25,696 nt of DNA, from assembly GCA_964479355.1 (NCBI GenBank), contig CAYZLS010000003.1, positions 1 to 25,696 on the forward strand, given 5' to 3'. This DNA comes from an uncultured Wenzhouxiangellaceae bacterium. Lineage in GTDB: Bacteria; Pseudomonadota; Gammaproteobacteria; Xanthomonadales; SZUA-36. This document shows positions 2,530 to 25,696 of this stretch, piece by piece (within the stretch, counting starts at the first letter, position 1; each line of letters starts with the position of its first letter). The notes beneath the pieces were generated by a model. It worked only from the letters and a program-made list of their open reading frames with translations, did not search any database and was not told the origin of the DNA. Both the position numbers and the translations under genes were made by a program.

Positions 2530-2568
2530 AAGGTGTCACTATTCGCTGAGTTAATATTAGGTTCTGCG

Positions 2569-2602
2569 TGCAATTATCAATTGCAATCAGGAAGATATCT
2601 TC
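2569..2602. promoter_or_regulatory. Candidate operator(s) upstream of the dehydrogenase: TGCAATT-N3-AATTGCA and GAAGATATCTTC palindromes
   Basis: Perfect inverted repeats at 2569-2585 and 2591-2602 in an AT-rich intergenic stretch 40-75 nt upstream of ATG 2529. Confidence 0.45.
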
Positions 2603-2674
2603 TTTCTCTATAGGCACGCAACACATAATGAGCAAGATGATATTTGCAACCAGCTCACCCTGAAAACATTTATT

Positions 2675-3016
2675 GTGCGTGTACGCTTGGTATCATTTAT
2701 TGTTGGAGGTGATGGTGAAATGCATGCGCAGGGCCAGTTTGGCAACCTGAGGAAAACACCACCCACTTACATATATACCCGTTGGGTATTGGTCGCTTTC
2801 ACTGTTCTGATGATGCTGAGTTCACTTTTCTTTGCGCCGGTTTGGATCTTTCGCAAACTCAGGGGAAAGCTCGGTAGAGGCAACTTGTTGGTTCGATCCC
2901 TGCCGTTATTTGCCACACTGGCTTTTGCTATCTTAATCGTCCTGATCATGGCGGGGCTCGCTGATATGAGCCGACAAACCGGCAACGGTACATTTTGTAC
3001 TTCCTGGCAAACCTGA
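2675..3016 (+). pseudogene. Orphan fragment of a membrane protein (two hydrophobic helices); resembles, from recollection only, the C-terminal membrane tail of some serine-hydrolase/beta-lactamase-family proteins
   Basis: TRWVLVAFTVLMMLSSLFFAPVWIFRKLRGKLGRG and LLVRSLPLFATLAFAILIVLIMAGL look like real TM helices with a positive-inside loop. No good start/RBS, and an abrupt end. Confidence 0.4.
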
Positions 3017-3115
3017 AACATGCTTACAAGTAGTTGAATTTTTGCAACAATCAAGTAAAGTGCAGTGATACTCGTGCAATATGCGGGCTAGTACTGAAGA
3101 TTAGTGGGGAGGCCC

Positions 3116-5262: not shown

Positions 5263-6576
5263 GTGATTGTGTTCAACAATTCTGTAGTTCTGCGCCGCTC
5301 GCTTTACATGTTTGGGCTGATTCTCGCAGGTGAAGCGGTGTTTACGTTGCCGTTTCACGTGACGCGGTTTTTTCGTCCCACGGTCCTCGAGGTGTTTTCA
5401 CTCTCTGCCACCGAACTGGGTGCCGCACAGGGCGTTTACGGCATTCTCGCGATGCTGTCCTATTTTCCGGGCGGACCCTTGGCCGACCGGTTCCAGGCGC
5501 GCAAATTGCTCGCCGTATCGTTGTGGTTAACCGCCGCGGGCGGCCTTTATATGGCAACTTTTCCTGACTACAGGGGCACACTGATACTGTGGGGCTTTTT
5601 TGGTATCACCTCGATATTACTGTTCTGGGCGGCCTTGATTCGGGCGACACGGGATTGGGGTGGCCACGACAGACAAGGGCGCGCATTCGGGCTGCTGGAT
5701 GGCGGTCGCGGCCTGCTCGCCGCAATCCTGGCTTCCCTGGGTGTGCTTTCGTTTTCGTTTGCCTTTCCCGAAGGCTATGCGGCGGCGAATTTCGAACAAA
5801 AAGAGGGCGCGCTACGCCTGATCATCCATGGCTATACCGCCGTGACCGCTACCGCGGGTGTATTTATTTGGTTTACCATCTCGGATGGACATCCCTCCGG
5901 TGAGTCCGGCGTGGAGGCGTGGAAGCCACAAACCGAGAACGTTTGGACTCATATCCTGCGCGTGCTGCGTATACCGGCCGTTTGGTTGCAGGCTGTCATC
6001 GTCGTCTGTGCCTATGTCGGCTACAAGGGCTTCGACAATTATTCACTGTTTGCAGTGCAAGGCTATAGCCTGGACGAAGTCGAAGCTGCCCGCATCGTCG
6101 CCATCGGTTCCTGGATGCGACCCATTGCGGCAATCGGCGCCGGCTTGCTTGGTGACCGTTTCAATGTTTCTCGCATGACATTGATCCTGTTCGCCCTGTT
6201 GCTCGTATCAGATCTGTTTTTTGCGCTCTCCACGCCGATAACGGGCGCCGCATGGGTCATGCTCGGCAACACCCTGCTGACCTGCATTGCAATTTTCGGC
6301 TTTCGTGGCCTTTACTTTGCGCTGTTCGAGGAGGCGAAGGTACCCGCGGCGGTCACCGGCACCGCCGTCGGACTGGTATCGGTCGTAGGCTTCACGCCCG
6401 ACATCTTTGTCACCTTCGTGGCAGGTGTCCTGATCGATCGCTCACCGGGTCTGGCCGGGCACCAACACTTCTTCCTGTTCCTGTCGGTGTTCGCTGTTAT
6501 CGGCCTGATGGCAAGCATTGCAATGATGCGCCTTGCGCACTCTGCAGAACAACTCACTGGCGATTGCCGGGACTGA
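5263..6576 (+). CDS. Major facilitator superfamily transporter (437 aa)
   Basis: About 12 hydrophobic segments; motif-A-like GPLADRFQAR and GLLGDRFNVSR; QGRAFGLLDGGRG. Start (GTG) uncertain. Confidence 0.92.
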   Translation: MIVFNNSVVLRRSLYMFGLILAGEAVFTLPFHVTRFFRPTVLEVFSLSATELGAAQGVYGILAMLSYFPGGPLADRFQARKLLAVSLWLTAAGGLYMATFPDYRGTLILWGFFGITSILLFWAALIRATRDWGGHDRQGRAFGLLDGGRGLLAAILASLGVLSFSFAFPEGYAAANFEQKEGALRLIIHGYTAVTATAGVFIWFTISDGHPSGESGVEAWKPQTENVWTHILRVLRIPAVWLQAVIVVCAYVGYKGFDNYSLFAVQGYSLDEVEAARIVAIGSWMRPIAAIGAGLLGDRFNVSRMTLILFALLLVSDLFFALSTPITGAAWVMLGNTLLTCIAIFGFRGLYFALFEEAKVPAAVTGTAVGLVSVVGFTPDIFVTFVAGVLIDRSPGLAGHQHFFLFLSVFAVIGLMASIAMMRLAHSAEQLTGDCRD

Positions 6577-6616
6577 ATGAAACTAATGAATATCGCAATC
6601 AGCCAAGCACCGCTGC

Positions 6617-9034
6617 TCAACTGCGTATTCTTTGCCCGGCCGGATCATACGGAGCTTGCGCCAGGACATGCGCCACTCTTTCCTCACCGACAATGTGTAC
6701 GCTCAACTGTGCCTTTGATTCGACGACTTCCCGGTCGATGTAGGCCAGTGCCAGGCTCATGCCAACATGATGACCATAGCCGCCCGAGGTCACAAATCCC
6801 ACGCGACGACCAGCCGCCCAAATGGGCTCATACCCTGCCGCATCGGCATCAGTCGCTTCGATTGCAAGTGGCACAAGCTGTTGCGATGGACCGGTCTCCT
6901 GCTCGAGGATTGCGGCATCGCGTCCGATAAAATCACCCTTGTCGAAGGCAATGAAATGATCAAGCCCGGACATGCCGGGCGTGTAAGACTGTGCAAATTC
7001 CGTAGACCAGCTACCGTAAGCTTTTTCAAACCGGAGGCTGTCAAGCGCACGTAAGCCGATCTGGCGCAAACCAAACGGCTGGCCGGCAATACTCAATGCA
7101 GACCATAGGCAGCGCTGTTGAATCGCCGGCACCGAAACCTCGTAACCGAGTTCGCCTGTCAATGAGATGCGCGCAACTACAGCCTGCGTCATGCCGATGT
7201 TCATGGTTTGGCAGGAAAGGAATGGCACCGCGGAATTCGATACATCGACATCGGTCAGTGCAGCCAGGATATCTCTCGATCGTGGTCCGGACAGGGAAAA
7301 GCCCAACCAGCACTCAGAAAGATTTTCAACCTTGACACCCGATCTAGGCAGATGATCACGGAACCAGCGAAGATGCCATTCCTGCAATATATAGGAGCCA
7401 ACGAGCCAGAAACGATCGTTTGCGAGACGACTCACGGTCAGGTCACCCATCAATTTGCCGGCCGGACTCAACATCGGTGCGAGGCGCACACGACCAACAG
7501 CGGGAATCCTGGACGCGAGAATATGATCAAGCCACTTTTCGGCGCCGGGGCCGGAAACCTCGTACCGGGCATAGATGCCGGTCTCAAACAAGCCCGCAGC
7601 GGTGCGGGTTGCAGCAACCTCCCGCGCGACAACTGCGTGTGCATTCGATCGTCTGAGCGAAGGAGCCTCGGTAAAGTCAGGGTCGTCAGGTACGAAGAAC
7701 AATGGCGTTTCCATTCCCCAGATCTCGCCAAAGTGTGCGCCTTCCGATTTCAGAACGTCGTAACAGGGGGAGGTTTTCAGCGGTCTGCCGGCTGGCAATT
7801 CCTCATTGGGGTAGGCCATGGCAAATCGCCGTGCATAAAACTGCCTTGTGGTGTCGGCCAGGTACTTGTCGTTACAGGCGTAATTGCCAAAGCGCGCAAC
7901 ATCCATGCCGAATACATCGAAACCGGGATCACCTTCGACCATCCAGTTCGCCAGCGCCAAACCGATGGCACCGCCCTGTGAGAATCCTGCCATGCAACCA
8001 CATGCGGCCCAGTAGTTCTGAAGACCGGGCACCGGGCCAATCAATGGGTTGCCGTCCGGGGTAAATGTAAATGCACCATTGACCCAGCGTTTGATACCGG
8101 TTTCCTGCAAAACGGGAAACCGTTCGAATCCAACCAAAAGCTCGTGTTCAATGCGGTCGATGTCTTCCGGCAGAAGGTCCATGCCAAAATCCCAGTCAGC
8201 GCCCTGGGGGTGCCAGTGAACCGGGTTGCGTTCATAAACACCGAGCAGTACGCCCGTGCCTTCTGGTTGCAGATAGGTGAAACCATCCAGGTCTGTAACC
8301 GATGGCATTTCTTCTTCAAGCGCTGCCAGTTCGGGAATGCTATCCGTCACCAGGAAATGGTGCTCCAGCGGCACCAGTGGCAGGTCGATGCCAGCCATAT
8401 GTCCGACCCGTCGCGCCCACAGCCCGGCCGCATTGACGACGTGCTCGGCGGTCAAGTCGCCCTTTTCGGTGGTAATACGCCAGCGTTTGTCAGGCAGTTG
8501 GGTTAGGTTGGTTACGCGATTTCTCAATATTGTCTTCGCACCCAGTTTTCTCGCGGCGATTGCAAATGCATGCGTGGCTCCGTGGGGGTCGAGGTGACCC
8601 TCCTGTGGATCAAACAAGCCACCTATGACGCCATCAAGGTTGACGATCGGAAACCTCGCCTCGATTTTCTCACGACCGATAAGTCGCGCATCCATTCCCA
8701 GCGTCTGGAACAGCGCCCACTCTGATTTGAGCCACTCCCACCGCTCCGGTGTGCACGCGAGTACAATACCACCGGTGCTGTGCAAACCGACATCCTGGCC
8801 GCTCTCTTTTTCAATCTGGTCATAAAGCGCGATGGTGTAGCTCTGAAGCGCTGCGATATTCGGGTCCGAATTGAGAGCGTGGAAACCACCTGCCGCATGC
8901 CAAGTTGACCCTGCTGTCAATTCCGCGCGCTCGATCAACGCAATATCGGTCCACCCGGCACGTGCAAGGTGATACAAAACACTTACCCCGACAATTCCAC
9001 CGCCGATAACAACCACACGGTAATGATCAGTCAC
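6617..9034 (-). CDS. Dimethylglycine/sarcosine dehydrogenase-like FAD-dependent oxidoreductase with GcvT folate-binding domain (~805 aa)
   Basis: VVIGGGIVG, GSTWHAAG (covalent-FAD His motif), VVNAAGLWA, FTPDGNP, RISLTGELGYE, VTSGGYGH. Start reassigned to GTG 9034, which overlaps the soxG stop (GTGA). Confidence 0.93.
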   Translation of the reverse strand: MTDHYRVVVIGGGIVGVSVLYHLARAGWTDIALIERAELTAGSTWHAAGGFHALNSDPNIAALQSYTIALYDQIEKESGQDVGLHSTGGIVLACTPERWEWLKSEWALFQTLGMDARLIGREKIEARFPIVNLDGVIGGLFDPQEGHLDPHGATHAFAIAARKLGAKTILRNRVTNLTQLPDKRWRITTEKGDLTAEHVVNAAGLWARRVGHMAGIDLPLVPLEHHFLVTDSIPELAALEEEMPSVTDLDGFTYLQPEGTGVLLGVYERNPVHWHPQGADWDFGMDLLPEDIDRIEHELLVGFERFPVLQETGIKRWVNGAFTFTPDGNPLIGPVPGLQNYWAACGCMAGFSQGGAIGLALANWMVEGDPGFDVFGMDVARFGNYACNDKYLADTTRQFYARRFAMAYPNEELPAGRPLKTSPCYDVLKSEGAHFGEIWGMETPLFFVPDDPDFTEAPSLRRSNAHAVVAREVAATRTAAGLFETGIYARYEVSGPGAEKWLDHILASRIPAVGRVRLAPMLSPAGKLMGDLTVSRLANDRFWLVGSYILQEWHLRWFRDHLPRSGVKVENLSECWLGFSLSGPRSRDILAALTDVDVSNSAVPFLSCQTMNIGMTQAVVARISLTGELGYEVSVPAIQQRCLWSALSIAGQPFGLRQIGLRALDSLRFEKAYGSWSTEFAQSYTPGMSGLDHFIAFDKGDFIGRDAAILEQETGPSQQLVPLAIEATDADAAGYEPIWAAGRRVGFVTSGGYGHHVGMSLALAYIDREVVESKAQLSVHIVGEERVAHVLAQAPYDPAGQRIRS

Positions 9035-9483
9035 AACCTTTTCCCCACCTTGTTCAACGCATCGCAAAGACTTTCAGCGTAGCTTGCAGGCACCCATATC
9101 TCGTCTGCATCGGCTACGAGCAGTAATACAACCGGGCAATCAAATAGTGACAGCGCCGCACATTCGCGACCATTCAGCACCAGGTCGGTATGGGCACCTG
9201 CTGCCAAGACCTTGCGGGCGCCTGACCCGTGCAGACGATAACCACACCACTTGCCGGTTGCATCGACCGCGATTGCTTCGGCAGTTGCTGCCACGGCTGG
9301 AGTTGTGCCTTTATGGTTTATGGCCAACAGGTAACGCTGCGCAAAGTGAAATATGCGACTGTCATTTTCGATGACCGCAAAACCGGGGTTCACACCATGT
9401 TCCGCAAAACTCGCCACCACATGCCACTCCACGCAATCGGTCACGTTGATGACCTCGAGTTGCCACTGCGCCAGTGCACTCAT
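9031..9483 (-). CDS. soxG: Heterotetrameric sarcosine oxidase gamma subunit-like (short, divergent, 150 aa)
   Basis: Position after soxA with ATGA coupling; VDATGKW-x-YRLHGSGARKVLAAG and EIWVPASYAESL echo the SoxG C-terminal pattern. Confidence 0.75.
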   Translation of the reverse strand: MSALAQWQLEVINVTDCVEWHVVASFAEHGVNPGFAVIENDSRIFHFAQRYLLAINHKGTTPAVAATAEAIAVDATGKWCGYRLHGSGARKVLAAGAHTDLVLNGRECAALSLFDCPVVLLLVADADEIWVPASYAESLCDALNKVGKRL

Positions 9484-12410
9484 GATTTCATCCTCGTGCC
9501 CTGGGGATCAAACTGCACCGTCGACACTGTTCTGACCGGCGTATCTCCACCCCGCAACGGATCACGTGCTAGCAATGTAGTGCCCTCTTCTCCATGTTGG
9601 CGTGCCACCAGCGCCAGCCCTATCCATTCGCCCAGCGCCGGACTGAAATTGGCAGAAGTGACATGTCCACATGAACGGTTGGGTTCGCTTGTGGTCGTGA
9701 TTTGTGCACCGGTCAGGAATTCTTGGCCCGATTGGCTGGACCGCAGACCCACCAGGTGGGGCCGCTCTAAGCTGTGCAGACCGGGACGATCCAGCAGGGC
9801 ACGTCCAATGCAAGGATTGCCCTGCCCGACCATCCAATCCATGCCCAGGTCCTGGGGTGTTGTCTGGCCATTGAGTTCCGCGCTGGTCAGGTAGCCCTTC
9901 TCTACCCGTAGCACCTCCAATGCCTCAAGACCATAGGGCAGCATGTCCATATCCGACAACGCCTGCCACAAGGGCCCGGCGATTGGTGCCCGGCAATGCA
10001 GCTCATAGGCCAGTTCACCGGAGAAACTGGCTCGCAGCACACGCAAGCCGTGGTTTTGCCACTGACCGGCAACAAACTCCATATGGGTCAGCTGTTGCAG
10101 ATCATCCTGCCAAACACTACCGAGGACCTGGCAAAGAACCTCGTGACTGCGTGGGCCAGCCACCACGATCACGCCCCATACTTCGGTCACATCAGCGATA
10201 ACCACACCACGGTATTGCGCTTCGAGATCGCGATGAAATTCGACGTGGGACAGGACGTGACCGGCGTGCCCCGTACTTACCGTAGCCAGGAAACGCTCAG
10301 ACTCCAAACGCATGACAAGACCATCGTCCAGCACCATGCCATCTTCACGCAACATGACCATGTACTTACTGCGCCCGGGCTTGATCGTACTGGCCCGGGT
10401 AAGATAGATATGATCGAGAAATGCCCCGGCACCAGGCCCGGCCACCTCTATCTTGCCCAGCGTGGAGCCATCCAATATGCCACCCGAGGCCCGCACACGG
10501 GCTGCCTCGGCGAGACCTGCAGCGACAGGGTCGGAGCCGTTAGTGCGGTAGTAACGGGGTCGTTGCCAGCGGCCCGCGTCTTCCATTACCGCACCCTGCT
10601 CAAGATGCAGGGAATGCAGTGCAGTACGCCGCTCGGGGCGTAGTGACAAGCCCTGACGGTGAGCAGCGATAACACCGAGGGTCGCGGGTTTGAATGGCGG
10701 ACGGCGACGGCTCGTGGTGGTGATCTTGTCATCACGACCAGAGAGCTCGGCCAGGATCGCGGCACCCATAACTGCACTGGTACGGCCCTGCTCGGTGCCA
10801 AAACCAAGCGCCGTGAAACGCTTTACATGTTCGATGTCACAAAAACCCTGTTCAAGGGACTGGCGCAGGTCAGCAACCGTGACGTCATTCTGCAGATCAA
10901 CAAACTGCCGTTTCTCACCCTTGCGGTTCGTGGGTGAACGCCAGAACGGTTCAACCCCTGGTTGCGGATCTCCACCGGTGATTTCAACGGGGAGCGAGTG
11001 ATTGGCAAGTGGCAAGCTGTCATCGGCCTCAACCCCTGCCCTGGTGGCGGCGGCGATACCGGCCTGGTGACCATCTGCAATGGCCTCTTCCAGTTCCAAT
11101 AGGCCGTTCGCAGCACCCGCAGCGGAACTCCAGGCTTCGGTAGCGGAAGCCAGGCCGCTGATCGGACCAGCAACGGAGTGCAGCGCCGCATAGTAATCCG
11201 GTATCCAGCCAGCGCTGACGAGCAGGCTGTCACAGCTGATGTCCTGTTTGATGCCAGACGCATCAAGTACCGCAACCCGTACACTACGCAGACTACGACC
11301 ACCCAGCGCCACCACGACGGCGTGACCGCTTAGGCAAACTACCCCTTCATCTTCAAGAGACGCCTGTTCGGGAGCCTCGCAAACCGGGCGAGTATCGACG
11401 ATCGCCGCGACATTCATGCCACCCTTGATCAGGCGTTGAGCCGACGTGTACAGACGGTTGTGGCAACCGAACAGGACAACATTCTGACCAACGCGTACAC
11501 CGTAGCGTGCCAGGTATCGCTCCGCTGCACCAAGTAACATCACACCCGGCAGATCATTATCGACAAAGGCAATCGGTTGTTCGATGGCGCCGGTTGCAGC
11601 AACGAATGCGCCGGAGTGAATTCGGTAGACAACGGCCTTGTCCGCCAGGCCGCCGGGCTCACGGTGTGCAACGACTAACTGGCCAGAACTGCCGACAACC
11701 GCGGTTTCGGTCAGAATACGTACCGAGCGTGCCTGCAATTCCTCGAGCGTTGTCCTGACCCAGTCAAGGCTAGCATGGCCGTCTATGACTGCGTCTTCAA
11801 ACTCCAGTTCTCCACCAAGCACCGGTTCACGTTCGCAGATCATGGTTCGCGCACCACCACGCGCTGCTGCAAGTGCTGCGGCGAGGCCTGCGGGTCCGGC
11901 CCCGGTGATCAGTACATCACAGTCAATGTGCTCCACCCTCGGTGGTTCAAGCGTACTGCCACTCGCCGTCGCACCCAGTCCGGCCAGACGCCGGATGATA
12001 CCCTCGTAGGCGTGCCATCGGGGCCACATGAATGTCCGGTAATAAAAACCGGCGCTGAATAAACCGCCAACGACACCAAACACCGAAGCGAGGTCGTAAC
12101 GTAACGACGGCCAGCGGTTCTGACTGACGATTCGCATGTCCTGCTGCAAGGTGAGGCACGGTGCCGGAAGGTTGGAGATGCAAAACTCTCCAGGATTGTT
12201 GGTTAGAAGGGCATTGGGTTCCTCAAAGCCTGCACTCAACACGCCACGTGGTCGATGGTACTTGACACTGCGCCCAAACAGTCTTGTACCCGCTGCGAGC
12301 AGTGCGGAGGCCGCGGTATCACCAGCAAAACCCTGGTAGGTTTTGCCGTCAAAACGGAAGCTGATCTTCTCATTGCCCAACCTGTGGCCGGTACGAACGG
12401 GCGTCTTCAT
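9480..12410 (-). CDS. soxA: Sarcosine oxidase alpha subunit family (~976 aa)
   Basis: FRFDGKTYQGFAGDT-ASALLA, RSVKYHRPRG, GAGPAGLAAA, FVDLQNDVT, HVKRFT, DGSTLGKIEV, RASFSGELAYE. Start reassigned to ATG 12410, overlapping the soxD stop (ATGA). Confidence 0.95.
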   Translation of the reverse strand: MKTPVRTGHRLGNEKISFRFDGKTYQGFAGDTAASALLAAGTRLFGRSVKYHRPRGVLSAGFEEPNALLTNNPGEFCISNLPAPCLTLQQDMRIVSQNRWPSLRYDLASVFGVVGGLFSAGFYYRTFMWPRWHAYEGIIRRLAGLGATASGSTLEPPRVEHIDCDVLITGAGPAGLAAALAAARGGARTMICEREPVLGGELEFEDAVIDGHASLDWVRTTLEELQARSVRILTETAVVGSSGQLVVAHREPGGLADKAVVYRIHSGAFVAATGAIEQPIAFVDNDLPGVMLLGAAERYLARYGVRVGQNVVLFGCHNRLYTSAQRLIKGGMNVAAIVDTRPVCEAPEQASLEDEGVVCLSGHAVVVALGGRSLRSVRVAVLDASGIKQDISCDSLLVSAGWIPDYYAALHSVAGPISGLASATEAWSSAAGAANGLLELEEAIADGHQAGIAAATRAGVEADDSLPLANHSLPVEITGGDPQPGVEPFWRSPTNRKGEKRQFVDLQNDVTVADLRQSLEQGFCDIEHVKRFTALGFGTEQGRTSAVMGAAILAELSGRDDKITTTSRRRPPFKPATLGVIAAHRQGLSLRPERRTALHSLHLEQGAVMEDAGRWQRPRYYRTNGSDPVAAGLAEAARVRASGGILDGSTLGKIEVAGPGAGAFLDHIYLTRASTIKPGRSKYMVMLREDGMVLDDGLVMRLESERFLATVSTGHAGHVLSHVEFHRDLEAQYRGVVIADVTEVWGVIVVAGPRSHEVLCQVLGSVWQDDLQQLTHMEFVAGQWQNHGLRVLRASFSGELAYELHCRAPIAGPLWQALSDMDMLPYGLEALEVLRVEKGYLTSAELNGQTTPQDLGMDWMVGQGNPCIGRALLDRPGLHSLERPHLVGLRSSQSGQEFLTGAQITTTSEPNRSCGHVTSANFSPALGEWIGLALVARQHGEEGTTLLARDPLRGGDTPVRTVSTVQFDPQGTRMKS

Positions 12411-12658
12411 TCCGGACCCCCGGTTTTGACAATGCTGTCGAGAGCCTGTATTTCCAATACCTCGCCAGTTGAAGGATTGCGCCAGATTTGCAGCCATTGG
12501 CGACATCCACTGACATGCTGCCAGTACTCGACACAGCTGTCAGTGCGGTTCAATCGCTCATACACAGCGCTGATTGCATCATCACTTTCCGCCACCATGC
12601 CACGGCAGTGGAATTCCTCCGCTTGCCTGGGACCGCAAAATGGGCAATGTAACTGCAT
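12407..12658 (-). CDS. soxD: Sarcosine oxidase delta subunit (83 aa)
   Basis: MQLHCPFCGPR...EEF...EYWQHVSGCRQW, with the Cys/Cys/His/Cys zinc ligands; ATG 12658 is 1 nt after the soxB stop. Confidence 0.93.
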   Translation of the reverse strand: MQLHCPFCGPRQAEEFHCRGMVAESDDAISAVYERLNRTDSCVEYWQHVSGCRQWLQIWRNPSTGEVLEIQALDSIVKTGGPE

Positions 12659-12659
12659 A

Positions 12660-13934: not shown

Positions 13935-14013
13935 GCCAGCCTGTTCACACTAGCCCGCAACTGGTATGTCCGGAGGGACTGGCGCGGCTACGGTCATCGG
14001 AAGAATGGGCAAT

Positions 14014-15756: not shown

Positions 15757-15769
15757 AGAAATTGCGTCT

Positions 15770-18700: not shown

Positions 18701-19015
18701 GTCGCTCACGAAGGCGATGTGCCGGCCGTCGGGCGAGAAGCGCGGCTGGGTATCGAACGCCATCCCGCGGGTGAGGGCCTGTGCCTCGCCGCCCTCGATC
18801 GGCAGCAAATAAAGATCGCCCAGCAGGTCGAAAACCAGCGAGCGGCCGTCGGGGGAGACATCGGTCGAGATCCAGGTGCCTTCGTCTGTAGAGAAGCGGA
18901 TCAGGCGGGTTGGTTCAAGCGGAAGACCTTCTGCAGCGGCTGGTACTGACGAGAGGCAGAACTGGCACATCGCCACCATCAGGATGCTAGCCACGCGCCG
19001 ACTCAGTATACTCAT
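15770..19015 (-). CDS. Exported TolB/PD40 beta-propeller plus amidohydrolase fusion protein (1081 aa)
   Basis: Sec signal (…PAAA/EG); repeated SPDG/SPNG PD40 motifs (DVSPDG, PRFSPDG, PALSPDG, PAWSPDG, PAFSPDG); C-terminal PGFLDLHNH, GAHGQRQGLGFHWELW, GTIEPGKMADLVVL. AAAGAGGG RBS. Confidence 0.93.
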   Translation of the reverse strand: MSILSRRVASILMVAMCQFCLSSVPAAAEGLPLEPTRLIRFSTDEGTWISTDVSPDGRSLVFDLLGDLYLLPIEGGEAQALTRGMAFDTQPRFSPDGRHIAFVSDRDGSENIWLMGADGRGDPRRLTEDTDTVFVSPEWTPDGAGIVVSRTGVVRNSLMELLFYSLAGGAPTSLVNGKDHGLTAVGAAFGADAQHVYFAQKPKEQQNYYPQIGQYQLAVLDRDSGDIHPFSNMQGGGLRPVLSPNGRWLVYASRFHAGTGLRLRDLSNGAERWLLHPAESDDQTANHASWDLMPGASFTPDSKALVTTLAGKLWKLAIPSGEKSPIPFSVEVDQPLGPAVKADRRLADRPVRARRISSPALSPDGQRVAFSALGRIWVMDLPDGKPRRLTGAEEGEFQPAWSPDGRQIVYASWKDMAEAGHVYSVDADGRRVRLTREAAFYGWPAFSPDGRRIAVLTMSRQAWIEDLLSYGEAMFPRSRPRAELSWVSAEGGELHRVMPLHGLGQPHFTQDPERIFVFQNPEPNLPGRGELVSVHVDGSNFRVHATGQLDSNDWPDEDEERGAPFNSPLISPDGHHLLVQAERQIYLVSLPDTREEPVEVSLESPRPGQSVRRISDTGGEFAGWGRDGREAVFTLGAKLFRYKLDSTALQETKIKIELPRQVPEGNILLSGARVITMRGDEILPEADILITRNRIAAVGARGMLHVPAGVKRLELAGKTIVPGFLDLHNHQGSVQETRLIQPWEFVSSLAYGVTTGYDTGAAGPSLVDYADLVETGEFVGPRFFGTGGILLPENVDDLKDLEDARGLLRRYVTDNGLDGVKQYAFGDRRKRQLLLMAAVEAGVLAIAEGNGENKPGITEIIDGYTAHQHYFTIAPLYRDVVELMARSGVGYVPTLLITHGAVGGEEYYYPRMPVHDDPKLARLTPHPFLDRQARRRELIWAQWLHDEEFKFPRFAQSAGAVIRAGGMVGVGAHGQRQGLGFHWELWNLASGMDNHDALRAATVLGARIIGLEQDLGTIEPGKMADLVVLDADPLEDIHNSTAIRYVVKNGVVYSGDTLSELLPEPLVRDWLRGWQEDLPSP

Positions 19016-19043
19016 GCGATACCCTCTTTAAACTTTGCTTCGT

Positions 19044-19075
19044 CGGCTGGTGACCGATCCTTAGGAAGCCAGCCG
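19044..19075. other. Intergenic stem-loop (CGGCTGG...CCAGCCG) downstream of the TBDR stop
   Basis: 7-bp GC-rich inverted repeat with an inner TCCT/AGGA pairing; no clean U-tract on the minus strand. Confidence 0.4.
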
Positions 19076-19094
19076 CAGCTCCTTGCAAATCATG

Positions 19095-21608
19095 TCAGCG
19101 GAAGTATTTGCGCACACCCGCGCCCATGGTTCGCGGTCTAACAGTGTAGACCGTTTCGCCGCGGCCAAAAAAGGTCTCGGGACCGAACGACCTGAATGTT
19201 TCGGCCCGTTCGTTGAACATGTTGTCCAGGTAGACGGAGATTTCCCATTCGCCGATGCTGAACCCGGTACGCAGGTCGACGATCGAGTATGCGGGATTGA
19301 GAACTGTTGCGCCGTATTCAAAGGAATCTTCGAATCCGTCGTCTGGGACCTGATTCCAGGATTCCCCTGTGTAGCTGTATTGCAGGCGCGCGAAAGCATC
19401 GCCACCACCCATCTGCCAGTCGTACTCCAGGTATGCCGCGAGTTTAAGGTCCGGCGTTAGTGGGAGGCGCGAGCCCCCGGCAAGGAAGTAGGGATCGGTT
19501 GTGGGGTCGTTGGGGTTTTCCACGATAACGTCTTCATCGATTTCCGCATTGAACAGGTAGGTTGTAACCAGACCGGTGGACCAGCCGGCGCCGATGATTG
19601 CACTGATGTCGAGATCAATGCCGTCCACGATGCCGTCACTCAGATTGGCGACGACAACCTGGTACGGGTAGTGGGTGTCAACTTCTCCGTCGCCGTCCGA
19701 GTCGACTAAGGTGAAGTTTTGCGGATCAATCATCTCGAGTTGCATGTCCTTCCAGATCTGGTGGTAGATGGTGACATTCAGCTGTACCCGGCCGTCGCGC
19801 CAGCGCGACTTGAGGCCTGCCTCCCAGTTCTGGAGGATGTCAGAGTCGTACTTGAGCGGGAAGGTCGATTCAATGCCCTTTTGCTGGGCGCGATCCCGAT
19901 TGACTCCCCCCAACCGGAAGCCTTCTGAATAGAGTGCGTAGACCATGCGCTCGTCGTCGATATAGTACTGGAAACCGATCTTGGGCAGCCACCCGTCATC
20001 GTCGCTGTCTCCGATCACCCATGAGGGAATCGGGTGTGTCGCAGGTACTCGATCGAAATAAGTGCGATCCACCGAGGTGTCGTACCAGCGCGCACCGGCC
20101 AGCAGCTTCCAGTGCTCGTTCAGGCTCCAGGTTCCCTCGCCGAACACCGCCGTGTCTTTGCGGGTGCTCTCCTCGCCGTTTTGCCATTTGATGAGGGTCG
20201 GCTCAAGTGGCGGGCGGCCAAAGAATTCCTGCTCGGCCTGAAATTGGGCCCAGGCTTCCATGCGCGTGAAGTCCGTCACATAGGTGCCGGCCTCCCAGTG
20301 CTGATCCGATTCCTGGTAGAAGAAGCCGAGCGTCCAGTCGAGCCGCGAGCTCGAGCCCGAAAGCCGGGTCTCGTGGGTCCATCGTTCGTCTTTCTGGTCG
20401 TGACGGAACCAGGCGATGGGATCGCCATCGTCTACGTCGTACCCGAAGCCATTCAACTCGCAGGCCGTGGCGTAGTCATAGAGGTTGTAAGCCGCGTAGT
20501 AGCCGGTGAACGCATCCGAGCCGCAGCTGCCGCGCCCCCAGGTGCCGAATGCGGCGTGGTAGTACGCCATGTTGTTGGAGGCGTCGAAGACATAGGCCGT
20601 GTCGCGCTCGAAATACGACGTAGAACTGGTCAGTTGCGCACTGCCCAACTCGCCTTCGAGTGTGAGCTGGAAGTTGTACCAGGAGTCGTCCCGGAGTTCC
20701 TCGACGAACTTGACGGTCTCGAGTTTGCCTAAGCTCCGGTCGAAAGCGTTGAACCCGTGGGCCTCCAAATTCTGGTTGTTGTAAATCCCGGTGATGGCCC
20801 ACTTGTCGTTAATGAACCACTTGGCCGAGATGCGTCCCCCATACCAATCGATGTCGTTGACATCCTTCCCTGCGACGTCTGCGTTCGTCTTGCTGCCGCC
20901 GTAGGGCGTTACGCCCGGCACGTTGTCGATGTAGCCGGCATCCTCTGCGGCGAAGGCGACCAGCCGCACAGCCAGCCGATCCTCGATGAGAGGGATGTTC
21001 AGCATCGCATCGGCATCCCAGCCGAGATCTCCGTGCTCGATCTGATACATACCGGTCTGGACGTTGGCGTCGAAGGCACTCGGGTCAGGCTTGGCGACGA
21101 TGTAACGCAGGGTTCCCGACTGGGAACTGGCTCCGTAGAGCGTGCCTTGCGGGCCCGCGAGGGCCTCGATACGCTCCAGGTCCACTAGGCGGATATCGGG
21201 CGTCTTTGCCCCCGTGGTCAGGGGTTGCTCATCCAGGTAAACGGCCGCGGAGGATTCGACAATGAACGGAGATACCGAATCCGCGAGGCCGCGGAACACG
21301 ACTTTGTTGGAGAGACCACCCGCACCGATCACTGTCATCGAGGGCACGAAACGCGATAGGTCGTGCATGTTGCGGATGCCCAGTTTCCCGATGTCCCTGG
21401 GGTTGAAAGCCAGCACCGCCTGAGGTACGTCCTGGCTATTCTCGTCGCGTTTGCGCGCTGTGACGATGACCTCTTCGAGCTCTCTTAAGCCCGCCTCATC
21501 CTCCTCCTGTGCCACCGCAATGGGTACGCCGGAAGTAGACGCGACAATAGCGGAAATGGCGCTCGCGAGCGCCCGGCGATCTGGGTTAAAAGGGGCTGAT
21601 TTTTTCAT
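19095..21608 (-). CDS. TonB-dependent receptor (837 aa)
   Basis: Signal peptide (AVA/QE), TonB-box-like LEEVIVTARKR, plug motif DLERIEALAGPQGTLYGASSQSGTL, SEGFRLGG, C-terminal VYLDNMFNE...RPRTMGAGVRKYF. Confidence 0.96.
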   Translation of the reverse strand: MKKSAPFNPDRRALASAISAIVASTSGVPIAVAQEEDEAGLRELEEVIVTARKRDENSQDVPQAVLAFNPRDIGKLGIRNMHDLSRFVPSMTVIGAGGLSNKVVFRGLADSVSPFIVESSAAVYLDEQPLTTGAKTPDIRLVDLERIEALAGPQGTLYGASSQSGTLRYIVAKPDPSAFDANVQTGMYQIEHGDLGWDADAMLNIPLIEDRLAVRLVAFAAEDAGYIDNVPGVTPYGGSKTNADVAGKDVNDIDWYGGRISAKWFINDKWAITGIYNNQNLEAHGFNAFDRSLGKLETVKFVEELRDDSWYNFQLTLEGELGSAQLTSSTSYFERDTAYVFDASNNMAYYHAAFGTWGRGSCGSDAFTGYYAAYNLYDYATACELNGFGYDVDDGDPIAWFRHDQKDERWTHETRLSGSSSRLDWTLGFFYQESDQHWEAGTYVTDFTRMEAWAQFQAEQEFFGRPPLEPTLIKWQNGEESTRKDTAVFGEGTWSLNEHWKLLAGARWYDTSVDRTYFDRVPATHPIPSWVIGDSDDDGWLPKIGFQYYIDDERMVYALYSEGFRLGGVNRDRAQQKGIESTFPLKYDSDILQNWEAGLKSRWRDGRVQLNVTIYHQIWKDMQLEMIDPQNFTLVDSDGDGEVDTHYPYQVVVANLSDGIVDGIDLDISAIIGAGWSTGLVTTYLFNAEIDEDVIVENPNDPTTDPYFLAGGSRLPLTPDLKLAAYLEYDWQMGGGDAFARLQYSYTGESWNQVPDDGFEDSFEYGATVLNPAYSIVDLRTGFSIGEWEISVYLDNMFNERAETFRSFGPETFFGRGETVYTVRPRTMGAGVRKYFR

Positions 21609-21617
21609 TTGATTATC

Positions 21618-21646
21618 CTAGTCGTGAGTCGGCTCTTCTAGTCGTG
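21618..21646 (-). repeat. 9-bp direct repeat CACGACTAG x2 (20-bp period) in the TBDR 5' leader; second copy overlaps the AGGA RBS
   Basis: Plus strand CTAGTCGTG at 21618-21626 and 21638-21646. Confidence 0.6.
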
Positions 21647-21666
21647 GATCTGACCCTGTCATATGC

Positions 21667-21695
21667 ATTGTATAGTTTCGATATGAATGATTCAA
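21667..21695 (-). promoter_or_regulatory. Sigma-70 promoter for the TBDR (TTGAAT-N17-TACAAT) with a TGAAT-N-ATTCA palindrome over the -35
   Basis: Minus strand TTGAAT cattcatatcgaaacta TACAAT, exact 17-nt spacer, about 60 nt upstream of ATG 21608; palindrome at 21684-21694. Confidence 0.7.
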
Positions 21696-21862
21696 TGAGT
21701 GCGCGACCTGAGTGGCGCAATCGCGGTAGGGAGGCTTGAGCGTGGCATGCGGCTGCGTGATCCGGGCCCCGTGAATATGGGGGACGTGGAGAAGGCCATC
21801 CTCGCGCGCTGCAAACACGCCGGGCGGCACAGTCATCCACGCCGTGACGGAAGTCGTTTAGA

Positions 21863-23884
21863 ATGAGTGCATCATCGAGTGGATTACCCTATATGCAGGT
21901 TGCTGCCATTACACAGGAATTCGAGCGTGCGTTCACGCGGTTGCGTGGTGGCGATGCCGAGGGCGCGGTTGCGCTGTGCCGCGAGACGCTGGTGCGCAGT
22001 CCCGACAACATCGATCTGTTGACCTTGCTTGGCGCCAGCCTGAATGCGCTGCGCCATTCGGATGTGGCGCTCGAACCGCTGCAGCGAGCTCTAGAAATCG
22101 CGCCCGGATTCGCCCGCGCCCACGAGGAAATCGGACGATCGTTACTGATGCTGCGCCGGGTAGACGAGGCCATCAGCCACCTCGAGCAGGCACTCGTGCT
22201 GTCTCCGGGTATGGAAAGTGTGGAGCGCAGTTTGGCGCAGGCGCTGCTGCTCGCCGGGCGTGGTGAAGATGCCGATCGGGTGATCGGGGAGGGTTTCGCG
22301 CGCAGCCCGCAGCGCAAGATACTGCTGGCTGCTGCGGAGCACCAACGCGCTGGACGCTTCCGGGAGAGCGAGCCGCTGTTGCGCAAAGTGCTTGCCGTAG
22401 AGGCAGATGATGTGAACGCGATGCGCATGCTGGCGCGGGTTGCCGAGGAGGCCAGGCATCTGGACGAAGCCGAGCGGTTACTGCGGCGTGCGGTTGAGCT
22501 GAAACCGGGATTCGACGACGCGCGGCTCAACCTAGCACGCGTGCTGAAGGAGAATGACCAACTGGAAGAGGCGGTCAATTGCACTGCCCAGGCAACGCTC
22601 GTCAATCCGCGTAATCCACTAGCGCATTATCTGCATGGGAGCATGCTTGCACTGATGCGGCGCTATGAGGATGCGATCGACGCCTACCGCGAGTCCATCC
22701 GTTTGCGGGCGCACAATCCTGCGGCGTGGGTGGGGCTGGGGAATCTGCTGAAGACGCTGGGCCGTCAGGAGGAGAGCATCGAGGCCTACCGCGAGGCGCT
22801 GCGTCTGCGGCCTGGTTTCGGTGAAGTGTGGTGGAGCCTGGCGAACCTCAAAACGTTTCGCTTCAGTGACGCCGAGCTTGCCGCGATGGAGCAGGGTCTA
22901 GAAGATACGGCTGAAGACGATGATGACCGCGTGCATTTCCTGTTCGCGCTCGGCAAAGCGGCGGAGGATCGGGGTGACTTCAAAGCCGCGTTCGCGCGCT
23001 ACGACGAGGCAAACAGCAGCCAGCGCATGCGCTTGATGTATGACCCGGTCGATACCGAGGTCAAGCACGAGCGCATCCGCGACACATTCAGCACGGAAGT
23101 CCTCGCCGCGCGTGTTACGCCGCCTGCGGATGAAGCGGTGCCGATCTTCATTGTCGGCCTGCCGCGATCGGGATCGACGCTGTTGGAGCAGATCCTCGCC
23201 AGCCATCCTCTGGTCGACGGGACTGCGGAACTTCCGGATTTGGCTCGTGTGATAGCAGAAATATCGCTCTGCCAGGCGGGCATGCGCTATCCGGAGGCGG
23301 TGACGCGTCTGGATACATCGGAACTGCATGAACTCGGCCTGATGTATCTGCAGCGCACGCGCCGCCACCGTAGCGGGAAACCATTCTTCACCGACAAGAT
23401 GCCGAACAATTTTTCCAGCATTGGCCTGATCCATCTCATTCTGCCGCAGGCGCGGATCATCGACGCACGTCGTCATCCGCTTGACAGCCTGCTTGGCTGC
23501 TACAAGCAGCATTTCGCACTCGGTCAGAGCTTCACTTACGATCTGGTGGAGCTGGGCGAGTTCTATCTTGAATACCGGCGCATCATGGAGCACTGGCATG
23601 CGGTGCTGCCTGGTCGGGTGCTGGAACTGCGCTACGAGAACATAGTGCGCGAACAGGAGGATATGACACGGAGGCTACTCGACTACTGTGGGTTGCCGTG
23701 GGATCCGCGCTGCCTGCGATTCCATGAAACGGAGCGGGCGGTGCACACCGCGAGTTCGGAGCAGGTGCGGCAGCCGCTCTACGACAGTTCCGTTAACCAC
23801 TGGCGGAATTTCCGTGAACAGCTGGCGCTACTGGTAGAGCAAATCGGTCCCGCGATCGAGGCCGAGGGCTGGCTTATAAATTGA
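21863..23884 (+). CDS. Tetratricopeptide-repeat sulfotransferase (PAPS-dependent sulfotransferase domain at C-terminus), up to 673 aa
   Basis: About 8-10 TPR-like helical repeats (e.g. AWVGLGNLLKTLGRQEESIEAYREALRLRP), then PIFIVGLPRSGSTLLEQIL (5'-PSB loop), DKMPNN, RHPLDSLLGCY (3'-PB), TASSEQVRQP. The start may be ATG 21893. Confidence 0.93.
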   Translation: MSASSSGLPYMQVAAITQEFERAFTRLRGGDAEGAVALCRETLVRSPDNIDLLTLLGASLNALRHSDVALEPLQRALEIAPGFARAHEEIGRSLLMLRRVDEAISHLEQALVLSPGMESVERSLAQALLLAGRGEDADRVIGEGFARSPQRKILLAAAEHQRAGRFRESEPLLRKVLAVEADDVNAMRMLARVAEEARHLDEAERLLRRAVELKPGFDDARLNLARVLKENDQLEEAVNCTAQATLVNPRNPLAHYLHGSMLALMRRYEDAIDAYRESIRLRAHNPAAWVGLGNLLKTLGRQEESIEAYREALRLRPGFGEVWWSLANLKTFRFSDAELAAMEQGLEDTAEDDDDRVHFLFALGKAAEDRGDFKAAFARYDEANSSQRMRLMYDPVDTEVKHERIRDTFSTEVLAARVTPPADEAVPIFIVGLPRSGSTLLEQILASHPLVDGTAELPDLARVIAEISLCQAGMRYPEAVTRLDTSELHELGLMYLQRTRRHRSGKPFFTDKMPNNFSSIGLIHLILPQARIIDARRHPLDSLLGCYKQHFALGQSFTYDLVELGEFYLEYRRIMEHWHAVLPGRVLELRYENIVREQEDMTRRLLDYCGLPWDPRCLRFHETERAVHTASSEQVRQPLYDSSVNHWRNFREQLALLVEQIGPAIEAEGWLIN

Positions 23885-23933
23885 AGTGTCGGCGCTCGCT
23901 TTGGAAGCAGGTCGTCGCCATTTGAAAGCTGCC

Positions 23934-23963
23934 TTGCTTTTCACGTTCAGCGCATGTTAGCTT
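23934..23963 (+). promoter_or_regulatory. Possible sigma-70 promoter for the CocE/NonD gene (TTGCTT-N18-TAGCTT with extended -10 TG)
   Basis: TTGCTT 23934-39, TG at 23955-56, TAGCTT 23958-63, about 85 nt upstream of ATG 24048. Confidence 0.3.
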
Positions 23964-24047
23964 TTCGGTATCGGGCATGTCAGTGGCTGTCCGCAGAGGC
24001 CGCTAGCCGCGGCCGCACAGCAACCACAAAATCGAAAGGGCAAGACA

Positions 24048-25696
24048 ATGGGCTATATCCTACGTCCAGCGGGTCACCAGTCTAAGCGCCGCGGATCCGC
24101 GGCGGGGATCGGGAGGCTGCTCATGCTGCTGCTTGCACTCCTCGCGACCGCGCAGATTTCCTTCGGCGCCGATCGCGGCGACGACATCGTCATGCAGGAA
24201 GCCTGGATTCCGATGCGCGATGGCGTGCGTCTCGCCGCGGACGTCTATTTCCCCCGAGGGCGAGAACCGGGTGCGGAACATTCCGGCGAAGCGCTGCCGG
24301 TGCTGTTTGAATACCTGCCGTACCGCAAGACCGAGGGCCGCGCCTCTAGGCTGGCGCTGTACTCCTATTTCATCCGGCGCGGTTACGTCGTAGCCCGCGT
24401 TGACATCCGCGGCACGGGCAACAGCGAAGGCCACCTCGTAGAGTTCGAGTACAGCGAGCAGGAGCAGCAGGATGGCGAGGACGCGATCGCCTGGCTCGCG
24501 GGGCAGCCCTATGCGAGCGGCAAGGTCGGCATGTTCGGGTTGTCCTGGGGTGGTTTCAATTCCATTCACATGGCGATGCGCAACCCGCCTGCGCTCAAGG
24601 CGATCCTGGCGATCATGGCGGCCGATGACTTGTACGAGGACGATGTGCACTTCATCGACGGAGGCATGCACGTTGACTCCTATGAAATGCTACTGGATCT
24701 AGAGAACTCGATGCCTGGGGCACCGGACTACCTCATCGACGAGGACTACTACCGTAACCGCTTCGACACACCGCCCTGGCTGCCCCTGTACAAGCGTCAG
24801 CCGCGCGCCGGCCCCTTCTGGGATCGAACGGCTCCGAAGGCCCATTTCGACGCAATCCGCATCCCCACTTTTCTGATCGGCGGCCTGCTGGATGGCTACC
24901 GCGACAGCCTTCCTCGCATGCTTCAGCACCTGCAGGCGCCAGTGAAGGCGATCATGGGTCCCTGGGCGCATTCCTGGCCGAACCTGGCCTACCCGCAGCC
25001 CGCGATCGAGTGGCGCCACGAAGCGGTGCGCTGGTTCGATTACTGGCTGAAGGACGAGGACACCGGGATTATGGCGGAGCCGCGCTTCGCCGTGTACGTG
25101 CGGAACTGGCATCCGCCGCTCACGGACCTTGAGACCATGCCCGGCGAGTGGCGCTGGGAAGAAGGTTGGCCCATCGAGCGCATCGGCATGCGAACGCTCT
25201 ATCCGCGCGCCAACCGTGGCCTCGGTGACGCGGTTCCCGCCGGCGAGGCCCAGACGCACACCCTCGACTATGTACCTACCAGTGGTGCCGAGGCGGGCGG
25301 ACCGGTCATGTGGTGGGGCGATCCCACGCCGGACCAGCGCCCCTCGGACGCCTTCGGGTTGGTGTACGAGACCGAGCCGCTAACGGAGGACCTCGAGATC
25401 CTCGGTTTCCCCCGAGCCTACCTGAATGTGAGTTCCAGCACGCCGGTCGCAAACTGGTTCGCAAGACTATCGGACGTCGCACCAGGTGGCGCCGTCAGCC
25501 TTGTGGCCGGGGCCGGCTTTAACGGCACGCACCGCGAGTCTTCGCGCTCGCCGGCGCCGCTGGTGCCGGACGCCGAGGTGGTGTTAGACATCGATATGCA
25601 CTTCACCTCCTGGGTGTTTCCTGCCGGCCACCGGATCCGACTGGTGGTGAGCAACGCGCAGTGGCCGATGATCTGGCCAACGCCCGCAGTGATGAG
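24048..25696 (+). CDS. Exported CocE/NonD family (peptidase S15-like) alpha/beta hydrolase, 3' end beyond the window (absent from the ORF track)
   Basis: Manual translation: signal-like GRLLMLLLALLATAQISFG, IPMRDGVRLAADVY, EYLPYRK, VDIRGTGNSEG, nucleophile elbow GMFGLSWGG, IGGLLDGY, GPWAH, GHRIRLVVSNAQWP. GAAAGGG RBS. Confidence 0.94.
   Translation, partial: MGYILRPAGHQSKRRGSAAGIGRLLMLLLALLATAQISFGADRGDDIVMQEAWIPMRDGVRLAADVYFPRGREPGAEHSGEALPVLFEYLPYRKTEGRASRLALYSYFIRRGYVVARVDIRGTGNSEGHLVEFEYSEQEQQDGEDAIAWLAGQPYASGKVGMFGLSWGGFNSIHMAMRNPPALKAILAIMAADDLYEDDVHFIDGGMHVDSYEMLLDLENSMPGAPDYLIDEDYYRNRFDTPPWLPLYKRQPRAGPFWDRTAPKAHFDAIRIPTFLIGGLLDGYRDSLPRMLQHLQAPVKAIMGPWAHSWPNLAYPQPAIEWRHEAVRWFDYWLKDEDTGIMAEPRFAVYVRNWHPPLTDLETMPGEWRWEEGWPIERIGMRTLYPRANRGLGDAVPAGEAQTHTLDYVPTSGAEAGGPVMWWGDPTPDQRPSDAFGLVYETEPLTEDLEILGFPRAYLNVSSSTPVANWFARLSDVAPGGAVSLVAGAGFNGTHRESSRSPAPLVPDAEVVLDIDMHFTSWVFPAGHRIRLVVSNAQWPMIWPTPAVM

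Follow-up and report, generated by a model that had tools for sequence, protein, structure and literature searches.

A run of co-oriented genes, led by the gene of a TonB-dependent receptor (TBDR) and ending in genes for folate-linked N-demethylases, lies on a 25,696-nt stretch of DNA from an uncultured Wenzhouxiangellaceae bacterium. This stretch, the window, is one whole contig of a bin (G000) of 2.2 Mb that consists of 382 contigs, is 70% complete, and has a GC content of 0.52. Downstream of the TBDR gene, the run encodes a fusion of PD40/Tricorn-type propellers with an amidohydrolase (the propeller-amidohydrolase), a second hydrolase of the Amidohydro_3 family, the β, δ, α, and γ subunits of a sarcosine oxidase-like complex (Sox), and a flavoprotein resembling dimethylglycine dehydrogenase (DMGDH). 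The gaps from the TBDR gene through the two hydrolase genes to soxB are 79, 13, and 79 nt. With starts set as in the orthologs, the soxB-D-A-G-DMGDH chain shows one 1-nt gap and three 4-nt overlaps, the last of them between the soxG stop and the start of the DMGDH-like gene. A major facilitator superfamily (MFS) transporter gene, MFS-Y, converges on the end of the run, and genes for a tetratricopeptide repeat (TPR)-sulfotransferase and an S15 hydrolase of the CocE/NonD type diverge from its head. An earlier reading made from the letters alone, here called the sequence-only reading, had proposed this gene order with its spacings and sox overlaps, as well as the three flanking genes. The open reading frame (ORF) listing and the family scans agree on every point, and the genes it named give strong family matches. 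The coordinates are collected in Table 1.

The ten genes of interest fall into two modules. Module A (14014–25696) comprises the TPR-sulfotransferase and S15 genes, divergent from the TBDR, propeller-amidohydrolase, and Amidohydro_3 genes. Module B (6617–13934) comprises soxB-D-A-G and the DMGDH-like gene. Relatives of these loci were found on contigs labelled L001 to L044. Module A is present en bloc, at 76–93% protein identity, in L001, L004, L035, and L036, including the S15 gene where the contig reaches that far. Module B is present en bloc at 61–94% identity in L042–L044, where the DMGDH-like gene (83–88%) keeps its position and SoxG is 61–82% identical; SoxB orthologs of 84–94% identity occur in L035 and L042–L044. 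Since the modules are conserved separately, the ten-gene set is not one fixed system. The gene-neighborhood survey that had been proposed along with the sequence-only reading has now been run, and the full gene set never recurs as one unit.

Table 1. Features of the window between positions 5263 and 25,696.
Feature	Position	Strand	Remarks
MFS transporter MFS-Y	5263–6576	+	MFS_1, E 1.8e-22; convergent with the sox operon
DMGDH-like flavoprotein	6617–9034	−	DAO, FAO_M, GCV_T, GCV_T_C; last gene of module B
Short SoxG (γ subunit), 150 aa	9031–9483	−	Assigned by predicted fold; no Pfam SoxG match
SoxA-like α subunit, 976 aa	9480–12410	−	ORF open up to 12506; orthologs have 976 aa
SoxD-like δ subunit	12407–12658	−	SoxD Pfam, E 7.6e-14
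SoxB-like β subunit	12660–13934	−	TIGR01373
79-nt spacer, junction of modules A and B	13935–14013	−	
Exported YtcJ-like Amidohydro_3 hydrolase, 580 aa	14014–15756	−	Amidohydro_3, E 1.5e-91
Exported fusion of PD40/Tricorn-type propeller and cog1228-like amidohydrolase, 1081 aa	15770–19015	−	PD40, Amidohydro_1, Amidohydro_3
TBDR, first gene of the run	19095–21608	−	Plug and barrel domains
Divergent intergenic region	21609–21862		Promoter-like site inside
Cytoplasmic TPR and Sulfotransfer_3 protein	21863–23884	+	Pfam
Exported S15 CocE/NonD hydrolase	24048–25696	+	3′ end runs off the contig; TIGR00976

Linkage between the modules is recurrent but facultative. It occurs in five arrangements, all of them co-oriented and with spacers of at most 80 nt. 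In the first, hydrolase genes are followed by orthologous sox genes, with a 79-nt spacer in the window and a 1-nt spacer in L035; the latter contig carries a TBDR gene, the propeller-amidohydrolase gene (84%), an internally deleted Amidohydro_3 gene, and then orthologous soxB (84%), soxD, and soxA. The second, in L004, joins the propeller-amidohydrolase (83%) through a cupin gene to a paralogous soxBDAG cluster (soxB 50%, soxA 38%). In the third, L038 (67%), an MttB-family methyltransferase gene directly precedes the propeller-amidohydrolase and Amidohydro_3 genes. The fourth, shared by L042 and L043, places an exported S15 gene (58–60% identical to the one in the window) 18 nt after the DMGDH-like gene, and the fifth, in L044, places an S15 gene (54%) 21 nt before soxB. 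Because related sequences are not independent, we count about five distinct joinings and give no P value.

The partners of the hydrolases can also be counted across the nine contexts of the propeller-amidohydrolase orthogroup. Amidohydro_3 adjoins in six of these, the TBDR with the sulfotransferase occurs in five, S15 in four (S15 orthologs adjoin the propeller-amidohydrolase in L001, L004, and L040), demethylation genes in four, and an MFS transporter that we call MFS-X in three. MFS-X belongs to an anion:cation symporter (ACS)-type subfamily and is 47–64% identical between contexts. In L042 and L044 its gene is divergent from sox; in L039 and L041 it stands next to the hydrolase pair, and in L004 it is the first gene of the TBDR operon. 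Two controls were used. The hydrolases were found at 0 of 80 other sox loci, namely 71 generic loci and nine loci of the next sox clade, and none of 20 neighborhoods of propeller-amidohydrolase paralogs (29–36% identical) contains sox, DMGDH, MttB, S15, or MFS-X.

Several features of the related contigs are recorded here in their own right. The Amidohydro_3 gene of L035 (8769–9662) lacks roughly residues 82–380 of the window protein and is 51% identical where aligned, and the same contig has a DDE transposase gene (1400–2566) between its sulfotransferase and TBDR genes. In L042 and L043, which belong to one public assembly, many genes in and near the sox unit are fragmented (MttB, soxB, GH106, GH2), a sign of either pseudogenes or an error-prone assembly. 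In L044, the sox unit has on either side a gene for an exported BNR/sortilin-like protein of about 1100 aa (1427–4654 and 15821–19114); the window's bin has seven matches to these proteins (C19, C55, C160, and others), two of which are full-length at 44–47% identity. The genome of the closest module A relative has a paralogous soxB-soxA-DMGDH cluster, 35–49% identical, at a different place (L164, G001:C45:1-20000), with an amine-dehydrogenase gene about 2 kb away and a TPR-sulfotransferase/TBDR pair nearby; that amine dehydrogenase is 57% identical to a split one at the far left of the window (see below).

The module B proteins match sarcosine-oxidizing enzymes to differing degrees. SoxB scores 533 bits against the TIGR01373 cutoff of 529 and matches TSOX β in the PDB at E 5e-98. 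SoxA matches TSOX α in the PDB at E 3e-130 and stays below the TIGR01372 cutoff (902 of 1164 bits), and SoxD stays below that of TIGR01374 (54 of 116.5 bits). An Fe-S cluster is not expected in SoxA, since its Fer2_4-like N-terminal region has only two cysteines. The 150-aa gene product gives a weak GCV_T match (E 0.0016). Its AlphaFold model has a pLDDT (predicted local distance difference test score) of 85, and the best PDB matches of the model are 2gag_C and 1vrq_C (E 1e-8, TM (template modeling) score 0.73). These are the γ subunits of two solved sarcosine oxidases; thus, the gene encodes a short SoxG. With γ recognized through its predicted fold, module B has the sarcosine oxidase gene order of β, δ, α, γ. 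Given that SoxA and SoxD fall below their cutoffs and that SoxG has no Pfam match, the Sox unit is a divergent member of the sox superfamily. The DMGDH-like protein has all four domains of its family and matches rat DMGDH in the PDB at E 8e-163. Each of the two module B oxidases has a folate-binding GcvT (GCV_T) domain.

The closest known counterparts of module B are marine genes for the route from glycine betaine through dimethylglycine and sarcosine to glycine (PMC3160333, PMC9321204). Shared features are a flavoprotein of DMGDH architecture and a four-subunit Sox, with GcvT domains, and contigs related to module B likewise have MttB-family genes nearby. The differences are that SoxA and SoxD of the window fall below their NCBIfam cutoffs, that SoxG is cut to 150 aa, and that the five genes form one translationally coupled unit that repeatedly carries or abuts exported-hydrolase genes. 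There are four MttB-family genes in the genome of the window. From known family functions, MttB, the DMGDH-like enzyme, and Sox, acting one after another, would take three methyl groups off a quaternary amine.

All three hydrolases of module A have export-signal-like N-termini, as the sequence-only reading had stated; we judged these by eye, and by the same inspection SoxB, the DMGDH-like protein, and the TPR-sulfotransferase have no export-type N-terminus. In the propeller-amidohydrolase, Tricorn_N and Tricorn_2nd are among the precomputed domains, and an HxH motif is present. Its best equivalog, NF051886, scores 94.8 bits, below the 500-bit cutoff. The distant PDB relatives of its amidohydrolase domain are carboxypeptidase- and dipeptidase-type amidohydrolases (E about 1e-15). 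Enzymes of the cog1228 group act on dipeptides or N-acyl amino acids, from which they release the C-terminal residue; they differ in specificity, and several are wrongly labelled "prolidase" (PMC11342369). The label was dropped as a specificity clue, as 2QS8, titled Xaa-Pro dipeptidase, is listed as a Xaa-hydrophobic dipeptidase in that work. The best solved relatives, Cc2672, Sgx9355e, Sgx9260b/c, and ochratoxinase (PMC11342369), share with the window protein the amidohydrolase fold and the HxH motif. The similarity is remote, and the window protein differs from them in having about 650 aa of PD40/Tricorn-type propellers and in being exported. A sequence comparison with the solved structures brought up none of the fused architecture. 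We know of no characterized protein with that architecture.

The Amidohydro_3 protein also has an HxH motif, and its sole PDB relatives are uncharacterized (3icj, 3igh). The S15 hydrolase exceeds the TIGR00976 cutoff (244 against 66.3 bits), has a GLSWG nucleophile motif, and matches cocaine esterase in the PDB at E 9e-32. With cocaine esterase and the α-amino acid ester hydrolases it shares the family score, the serine nucleophile motif, and a PepX_C domain; it differs in being exported or lipoprotein-like and in the length of its full-length orthologs, which have about 700 aa where cocaine esterase has 574. These are large families. There are more than 7,500 relatives for the propeller-amidohydrolase and more than 5,000 for the S15 subfamily; both groups, like the YtcJ-like Amidohydro_3 family, remain at least 60% identical across phyla, with S15 at 62–68% across several. 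No characterized member of the propeller-amidohydrolase family or the S15 subfamily was found.

The TBDR reaches no specific NCBIfam family. Its ortholog lies directly upstream of the propeller-amidohydrolase gene in L001, L004, L035, L036, and L037, and the TPR-sulfotransferase adjoins it in the window and in L001, L004, L035, and L036, that is, in every other TBDR context that extends to this point. Both the leading TBDR and the TPR-sulfotransferase occur in one gammaproteobacterial clade only. The sulfotransferase has motifs of the type that binds 3′-phosphoadenosine 5′-phosphosulfate (PAPS), PRSGST and RRHPLDS. Rather than capturing a nutrient amide, module A could have another role, for example taking up and modifying a sulfated or metal-binding compound with the help of the TPR-sulfotransferase, or turning over envelope material, with hydrolases that feed no catabolic route. 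In favor of such roles, conservation beside the TBDR is as tight for the TPR-sulfotransferase as for the hydrolases, the PAPS-type motifs of the sulfotransferase are intact, and the TBDR itself reaches no specific family. We think these roles improbable, as an MFS importer still accompanies the hydrolase pair outside the TBDR clade (L039, L041), S15 travels with peptidases, and the closest enzymes to the amidohydrolase domain are of the carboxypeptidase and dipeptidase types (PMC11342369).

The bin also holds further genes of these kinds. It has at least six TPR-sulfotransferase paralogs, which carry no signal peptide; some lie beside TBDR genes (C119, C351) and others beside DMGDH/GcvT-like genes (C264, C54). 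Contig C169 (L130), of native composition, has a TBDR gene followed by two single-domain cog1228-like amidohydrolase genes, and contig C119 (L125), also of native composition, has a TBDR gene, an unknown gene, and an amidase gene. On the 3.4-kb contig C272 (L157), an MFS-X gene 88% identical to the L044 copy lies beside an MTHFR-like gene. As for MFS-Y, a 36% relative lies directly after the propeller-amidohydrolase ortholog in L003.

The junction between the modules coincides with a break in composition. The sequence-only reading had drawn attention to a GC step near 14 kb; we confirm the step, which becomes sharper when only third codon positions are counted. The GC content at these positions (GC3) is 0.71–0.80 for the Amidohydro_3, propeller-amidohydrolase, TBDR, sulfotransferase, and S15 genes and 0.56–0.64 for the sox genes; in 902 long ORFs elsewhere in the bin, the mean is 0.56 (sd 0.07). 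Module A is thus foreign to the genome by composition. The DNA of L001 is 87–91% identical to the window over 13992–25696 and has no homology left of 13992, so that homology ends 22 nt past the Amidohydro_3 stop. No propeller-amidohydrolase ortholog was found in 93 other genomes of the same family, and module A thus appears foreign to the lineage. A soxA ortholog was likewise missing from 40 relatives searched in the genus and order (best match 40% identity), and an S15 ortholog was missing from 400 genomes in a class-wide search. Only the amine-dehydrogenase gene at the far left of the window has a close ortholog in a congener (87%, G019), and synteny with it ends at 2552. A tRNA scan and a direct-repeat search for island borders found nothing.

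Such a break might mean that the contig fuses the DNA of two organisms at about 13.99 kb through an assembly or binning error. The bin is fragmented and incomplete, the right half of the contig is an outlier in GC, and the absence of a propeller-amidohydrolase ortholog from the 93 genomes of the family fits such a fusion, as does the fact that L001, from another family, has about 90% DNA identity to the right half only. In addition, among the metagenome contigs displayed, none bridges 13978–14018. We nevertheless consider a fusion very improbable. L035, an independent contig, joins the hydrolase genes to orthologous sox genes, and in L001, a genome outside the family of the window, the block is likewise a high-GC island within lower-GC flanks. 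Moreover, three studies have marine metagenomes in which each half of the contig is covered at ≥99% identity, with depths that are low and similar. The sequence occurs in metagenome runs from marine water, sediment, vents, and seeps. Near-identical proteins in public records are labelled Woeseiaceae or Steroidobacteraceae, and cluster members bear these labels and that of Tara Oceans; pelagic Woeseiaceae have been reported to be rich in peptidases and sulfatases (PMC12175321).

Transcription signals were examined along the run. The sequence-only reading had placed one strong promoter at its head, a claim that our scan does not confirm. The site concerned (21695–21667) has 9 matching positions out of 12, another site with the same score is found between the TBDR gene and the next gene (19032–19005), and promoter-like sites are not above chance, with 5 observed against 6.5 (sd 2.4) in shuffled sequence. 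The site also sits in about 73 nt that L001 and L035 lack, and within the divergent region only the leader beside the sulfotransferase start is conserved among relatives. The companion claim, that the run has no clear internal terminator, stands: every terminator-like match in the run falls inside coding sequence, and such matches are no commoner than chance (19 observed, 16.4 with sd 4.0 expected). In the 79-nt spacer 13935–14013 there is no promoter-like site at the scan threshold, and by alignment the spacer is not homologous to the soxB upstream regions of L042 and L043. Upstream of the TBDR gene, L001 and L035 have in common a palindrome, CCATAC-N6-GTATGG, that is absent from the window with its extra 73 or so nt.

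We take the stretch to be a mosaic accessory locus of modules A and B and propose, as the likeliest reading, that the hydrolases free a small N-methylated compound that is imported by an MFS transporter and demethylated in the cytoplasm. In our estimate this proposal is evenly poised between right and wrong. We infer a shared substrate, an order of steps, and co-transcription, as follows. The starting compound would be scarce, nitrogenous, and amide- or ester-linked, for instance a peptide-like molecule or an N-acyl conjugate, and it would cross the outer membrane through the TBDR. The three exported hydrolases would cut it in the periplasm, and a small N-methylated, amino-acid-like product would enter the cytoplasm through an MFS transporter. 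The DMGDH-like enzyme, and then the Sox complex, would move methyl groups stepwise onto tetrahydrofolate. Within this proposal the TBDR is most likely a clade-specific front end. The sequence-only reading is thus supported in part. The evidence favors its coupling of exported hydrolases to cytoplasmic N-demethylation with MFS uptake, a theme that recurs in rearranged form and is absent from the control loci, and speaks against a single fixed TBDR-led set.

The main competing explanation is that the modules are independent neighbors. Module A would scavenge peptides and amides, module B would be an ordinary dimethylglycine/sarcosine operon, and both would belong to a mobile pool of organic-nitrogen genes with at most shared regulation. 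We rate this explanation as rather less than an even prospect, one to be taken seriously, and the following evidence speaks for it or against the coupled scheme. Free glycine betaine, dimethylglycine, and sarcosine need no hydrolase; module B thus has an obvious stand-alone role. L001, the closest relative, with a propeller-amidohydrolase 93% identical to that of the window, has S15, the TPR-sulfotransferase, the TBDR, and both hydrolases and has no sox genes; L036 likewise has module A and no sox genes. Conversely, L042–L044 have module B and no TBDR, propeller-amidohydrolase, or Amidohydro_3. Five of the nine propeller-amidohydrolase contexts, the closest relative included, have no demethylation gene nearby. 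Since the junction coincides with the sharp GC3 step and with the end of the L001 homology, the link between the modules is evolutionarily labile.

Further observations point the same way. To the absence of a displayed bridging contig is added, in one marine metagenome run, a contig that matches Amidohydro_3 rightwards from 14018 and continues leftwards with 76 unrelated letters, which suggests that the population also contains another arrangement of the junction. RNA libraries gave only short contigs of relatives, on soxB, Amidohydro_3, and TBDR, from one sediment metatranscriptome. The MFS-Y of the window is convergent and of another family than the MFS-X of related loci. In other phyla, S15 relatives (66–67%) lie among ordinary peptidases (M13, M2, and others), one of them by a proline dehydrogenase gene and none near sox. 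No full sox cluster other than module B was found in the 70%-complete genome, so that module B may serve general sarcosine use. The MttB genes, near module B elsewhere and present in four copies in this genome, would complete a betaine route together with DMGDH and Sox. Finally, the same theme occurs elsewhere in the bin, where TBDR genes precede amidohydrolase or amidase genes and TPR-sulfotransferase genes stand by TBDR or DMGDH-like genes.

Independence of the modules leaves three observations unexplained, however. An exported S15 gene is found in the sox operon at two positions with spacers of 18–21 nt; two sox lineages and MttB each abut the propeller-amidohydrolase; and one MFS subfamily occurs with both modules. 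Such neighbors were seen in 0 of 80 other sox loci and 0 of 20 paralog loci. A more specific form of the coupled scheme is that the hydrolases, the ACS-type MFS transporter, and the Sox/DMGDH unit constitute a dedicated, undescribed pathway that harvests N-methylated amino acids from larger marine organic nitrogen, with TBDR capture in one gammaproteobacterial clade. Its substrates may include peptides with N-methylated residues and N-acyl-N-methyl amino acids. This form is a tentative suggestion, and we would not be surprised to see it fail. In the literature, no paper on a TBDR-hydrolase-sox locus was found.

The layout invites comparison with the carbohydrate utilization loci led by TBDRs, namely the CUT (carbohydrate utilization containing TBDR) loci of Proteobacteria and the polysaccharide utilization loci (PULs) of Bacteroidota. 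In common with these, a TBDR gene leads co-oriented genes for exported degradative enzymes, and an inner-membrane transporter gene is nearby. The window differs in having no glycoside hydrolase, SusD, or regulator gene and in having amidohydrolases, S15, and folate-linked N-demethylases. The absence of glycosidases had been noted in the sequence-only reading and is upheld here: the main ORFs of 5263–25696, each scanned as the longest open frame over its stretch, give zero glycosidase family matches. The SusC/SusD adjacency of PULs, in the definition used for Woeseiaceae (PMC12175321), is missing; the gene after the TBDR is that of the propeller-amidohydrolase, and no main ORF matches the SusD family. 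The enzyme and transporter Pfam matches are to amidohydrolase, S15, DAO, GCV_T, MFS, and sulfotransferase families, none of them carbohydrate-active. A TBDR and an MFS transporter are both present, but the MFS gene is convergent and 12.5 kb from the TBDR gene, and family scans found no regulator gene in the window.

Much marine dissolved organic nitrogen is amide-bound, and the bacterial routes of its use are poorly known. The repeated operonic joining to folate-linked demethylases offers a testable handle on the substrates of large exported hydrolase families, and it could mark a way in which polymeric or conjugated N-methylated compounds are channelled into one-carbon metabolism. Should the modules be neighbors and nothing more, the locus is a commonplace mosaic of gene kinds already known.

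Two minor observations concern DNA at the edges of this argument. A 30-nt alternative flank at 14018, seen in one metagenome, has no more than a 15-mer in common with an MttB-like gene of a different contig, and we draw nothing from so short a match. At the far left of the window, the gene resembling OYE/FAD amine dehydrogenases (469–2529, minus strand) is split by an in-frame TAG between 1179 and 1186; in the congener G019, the 87% identical ortholog lies inside an uninterrupted open frame of 686 aa.

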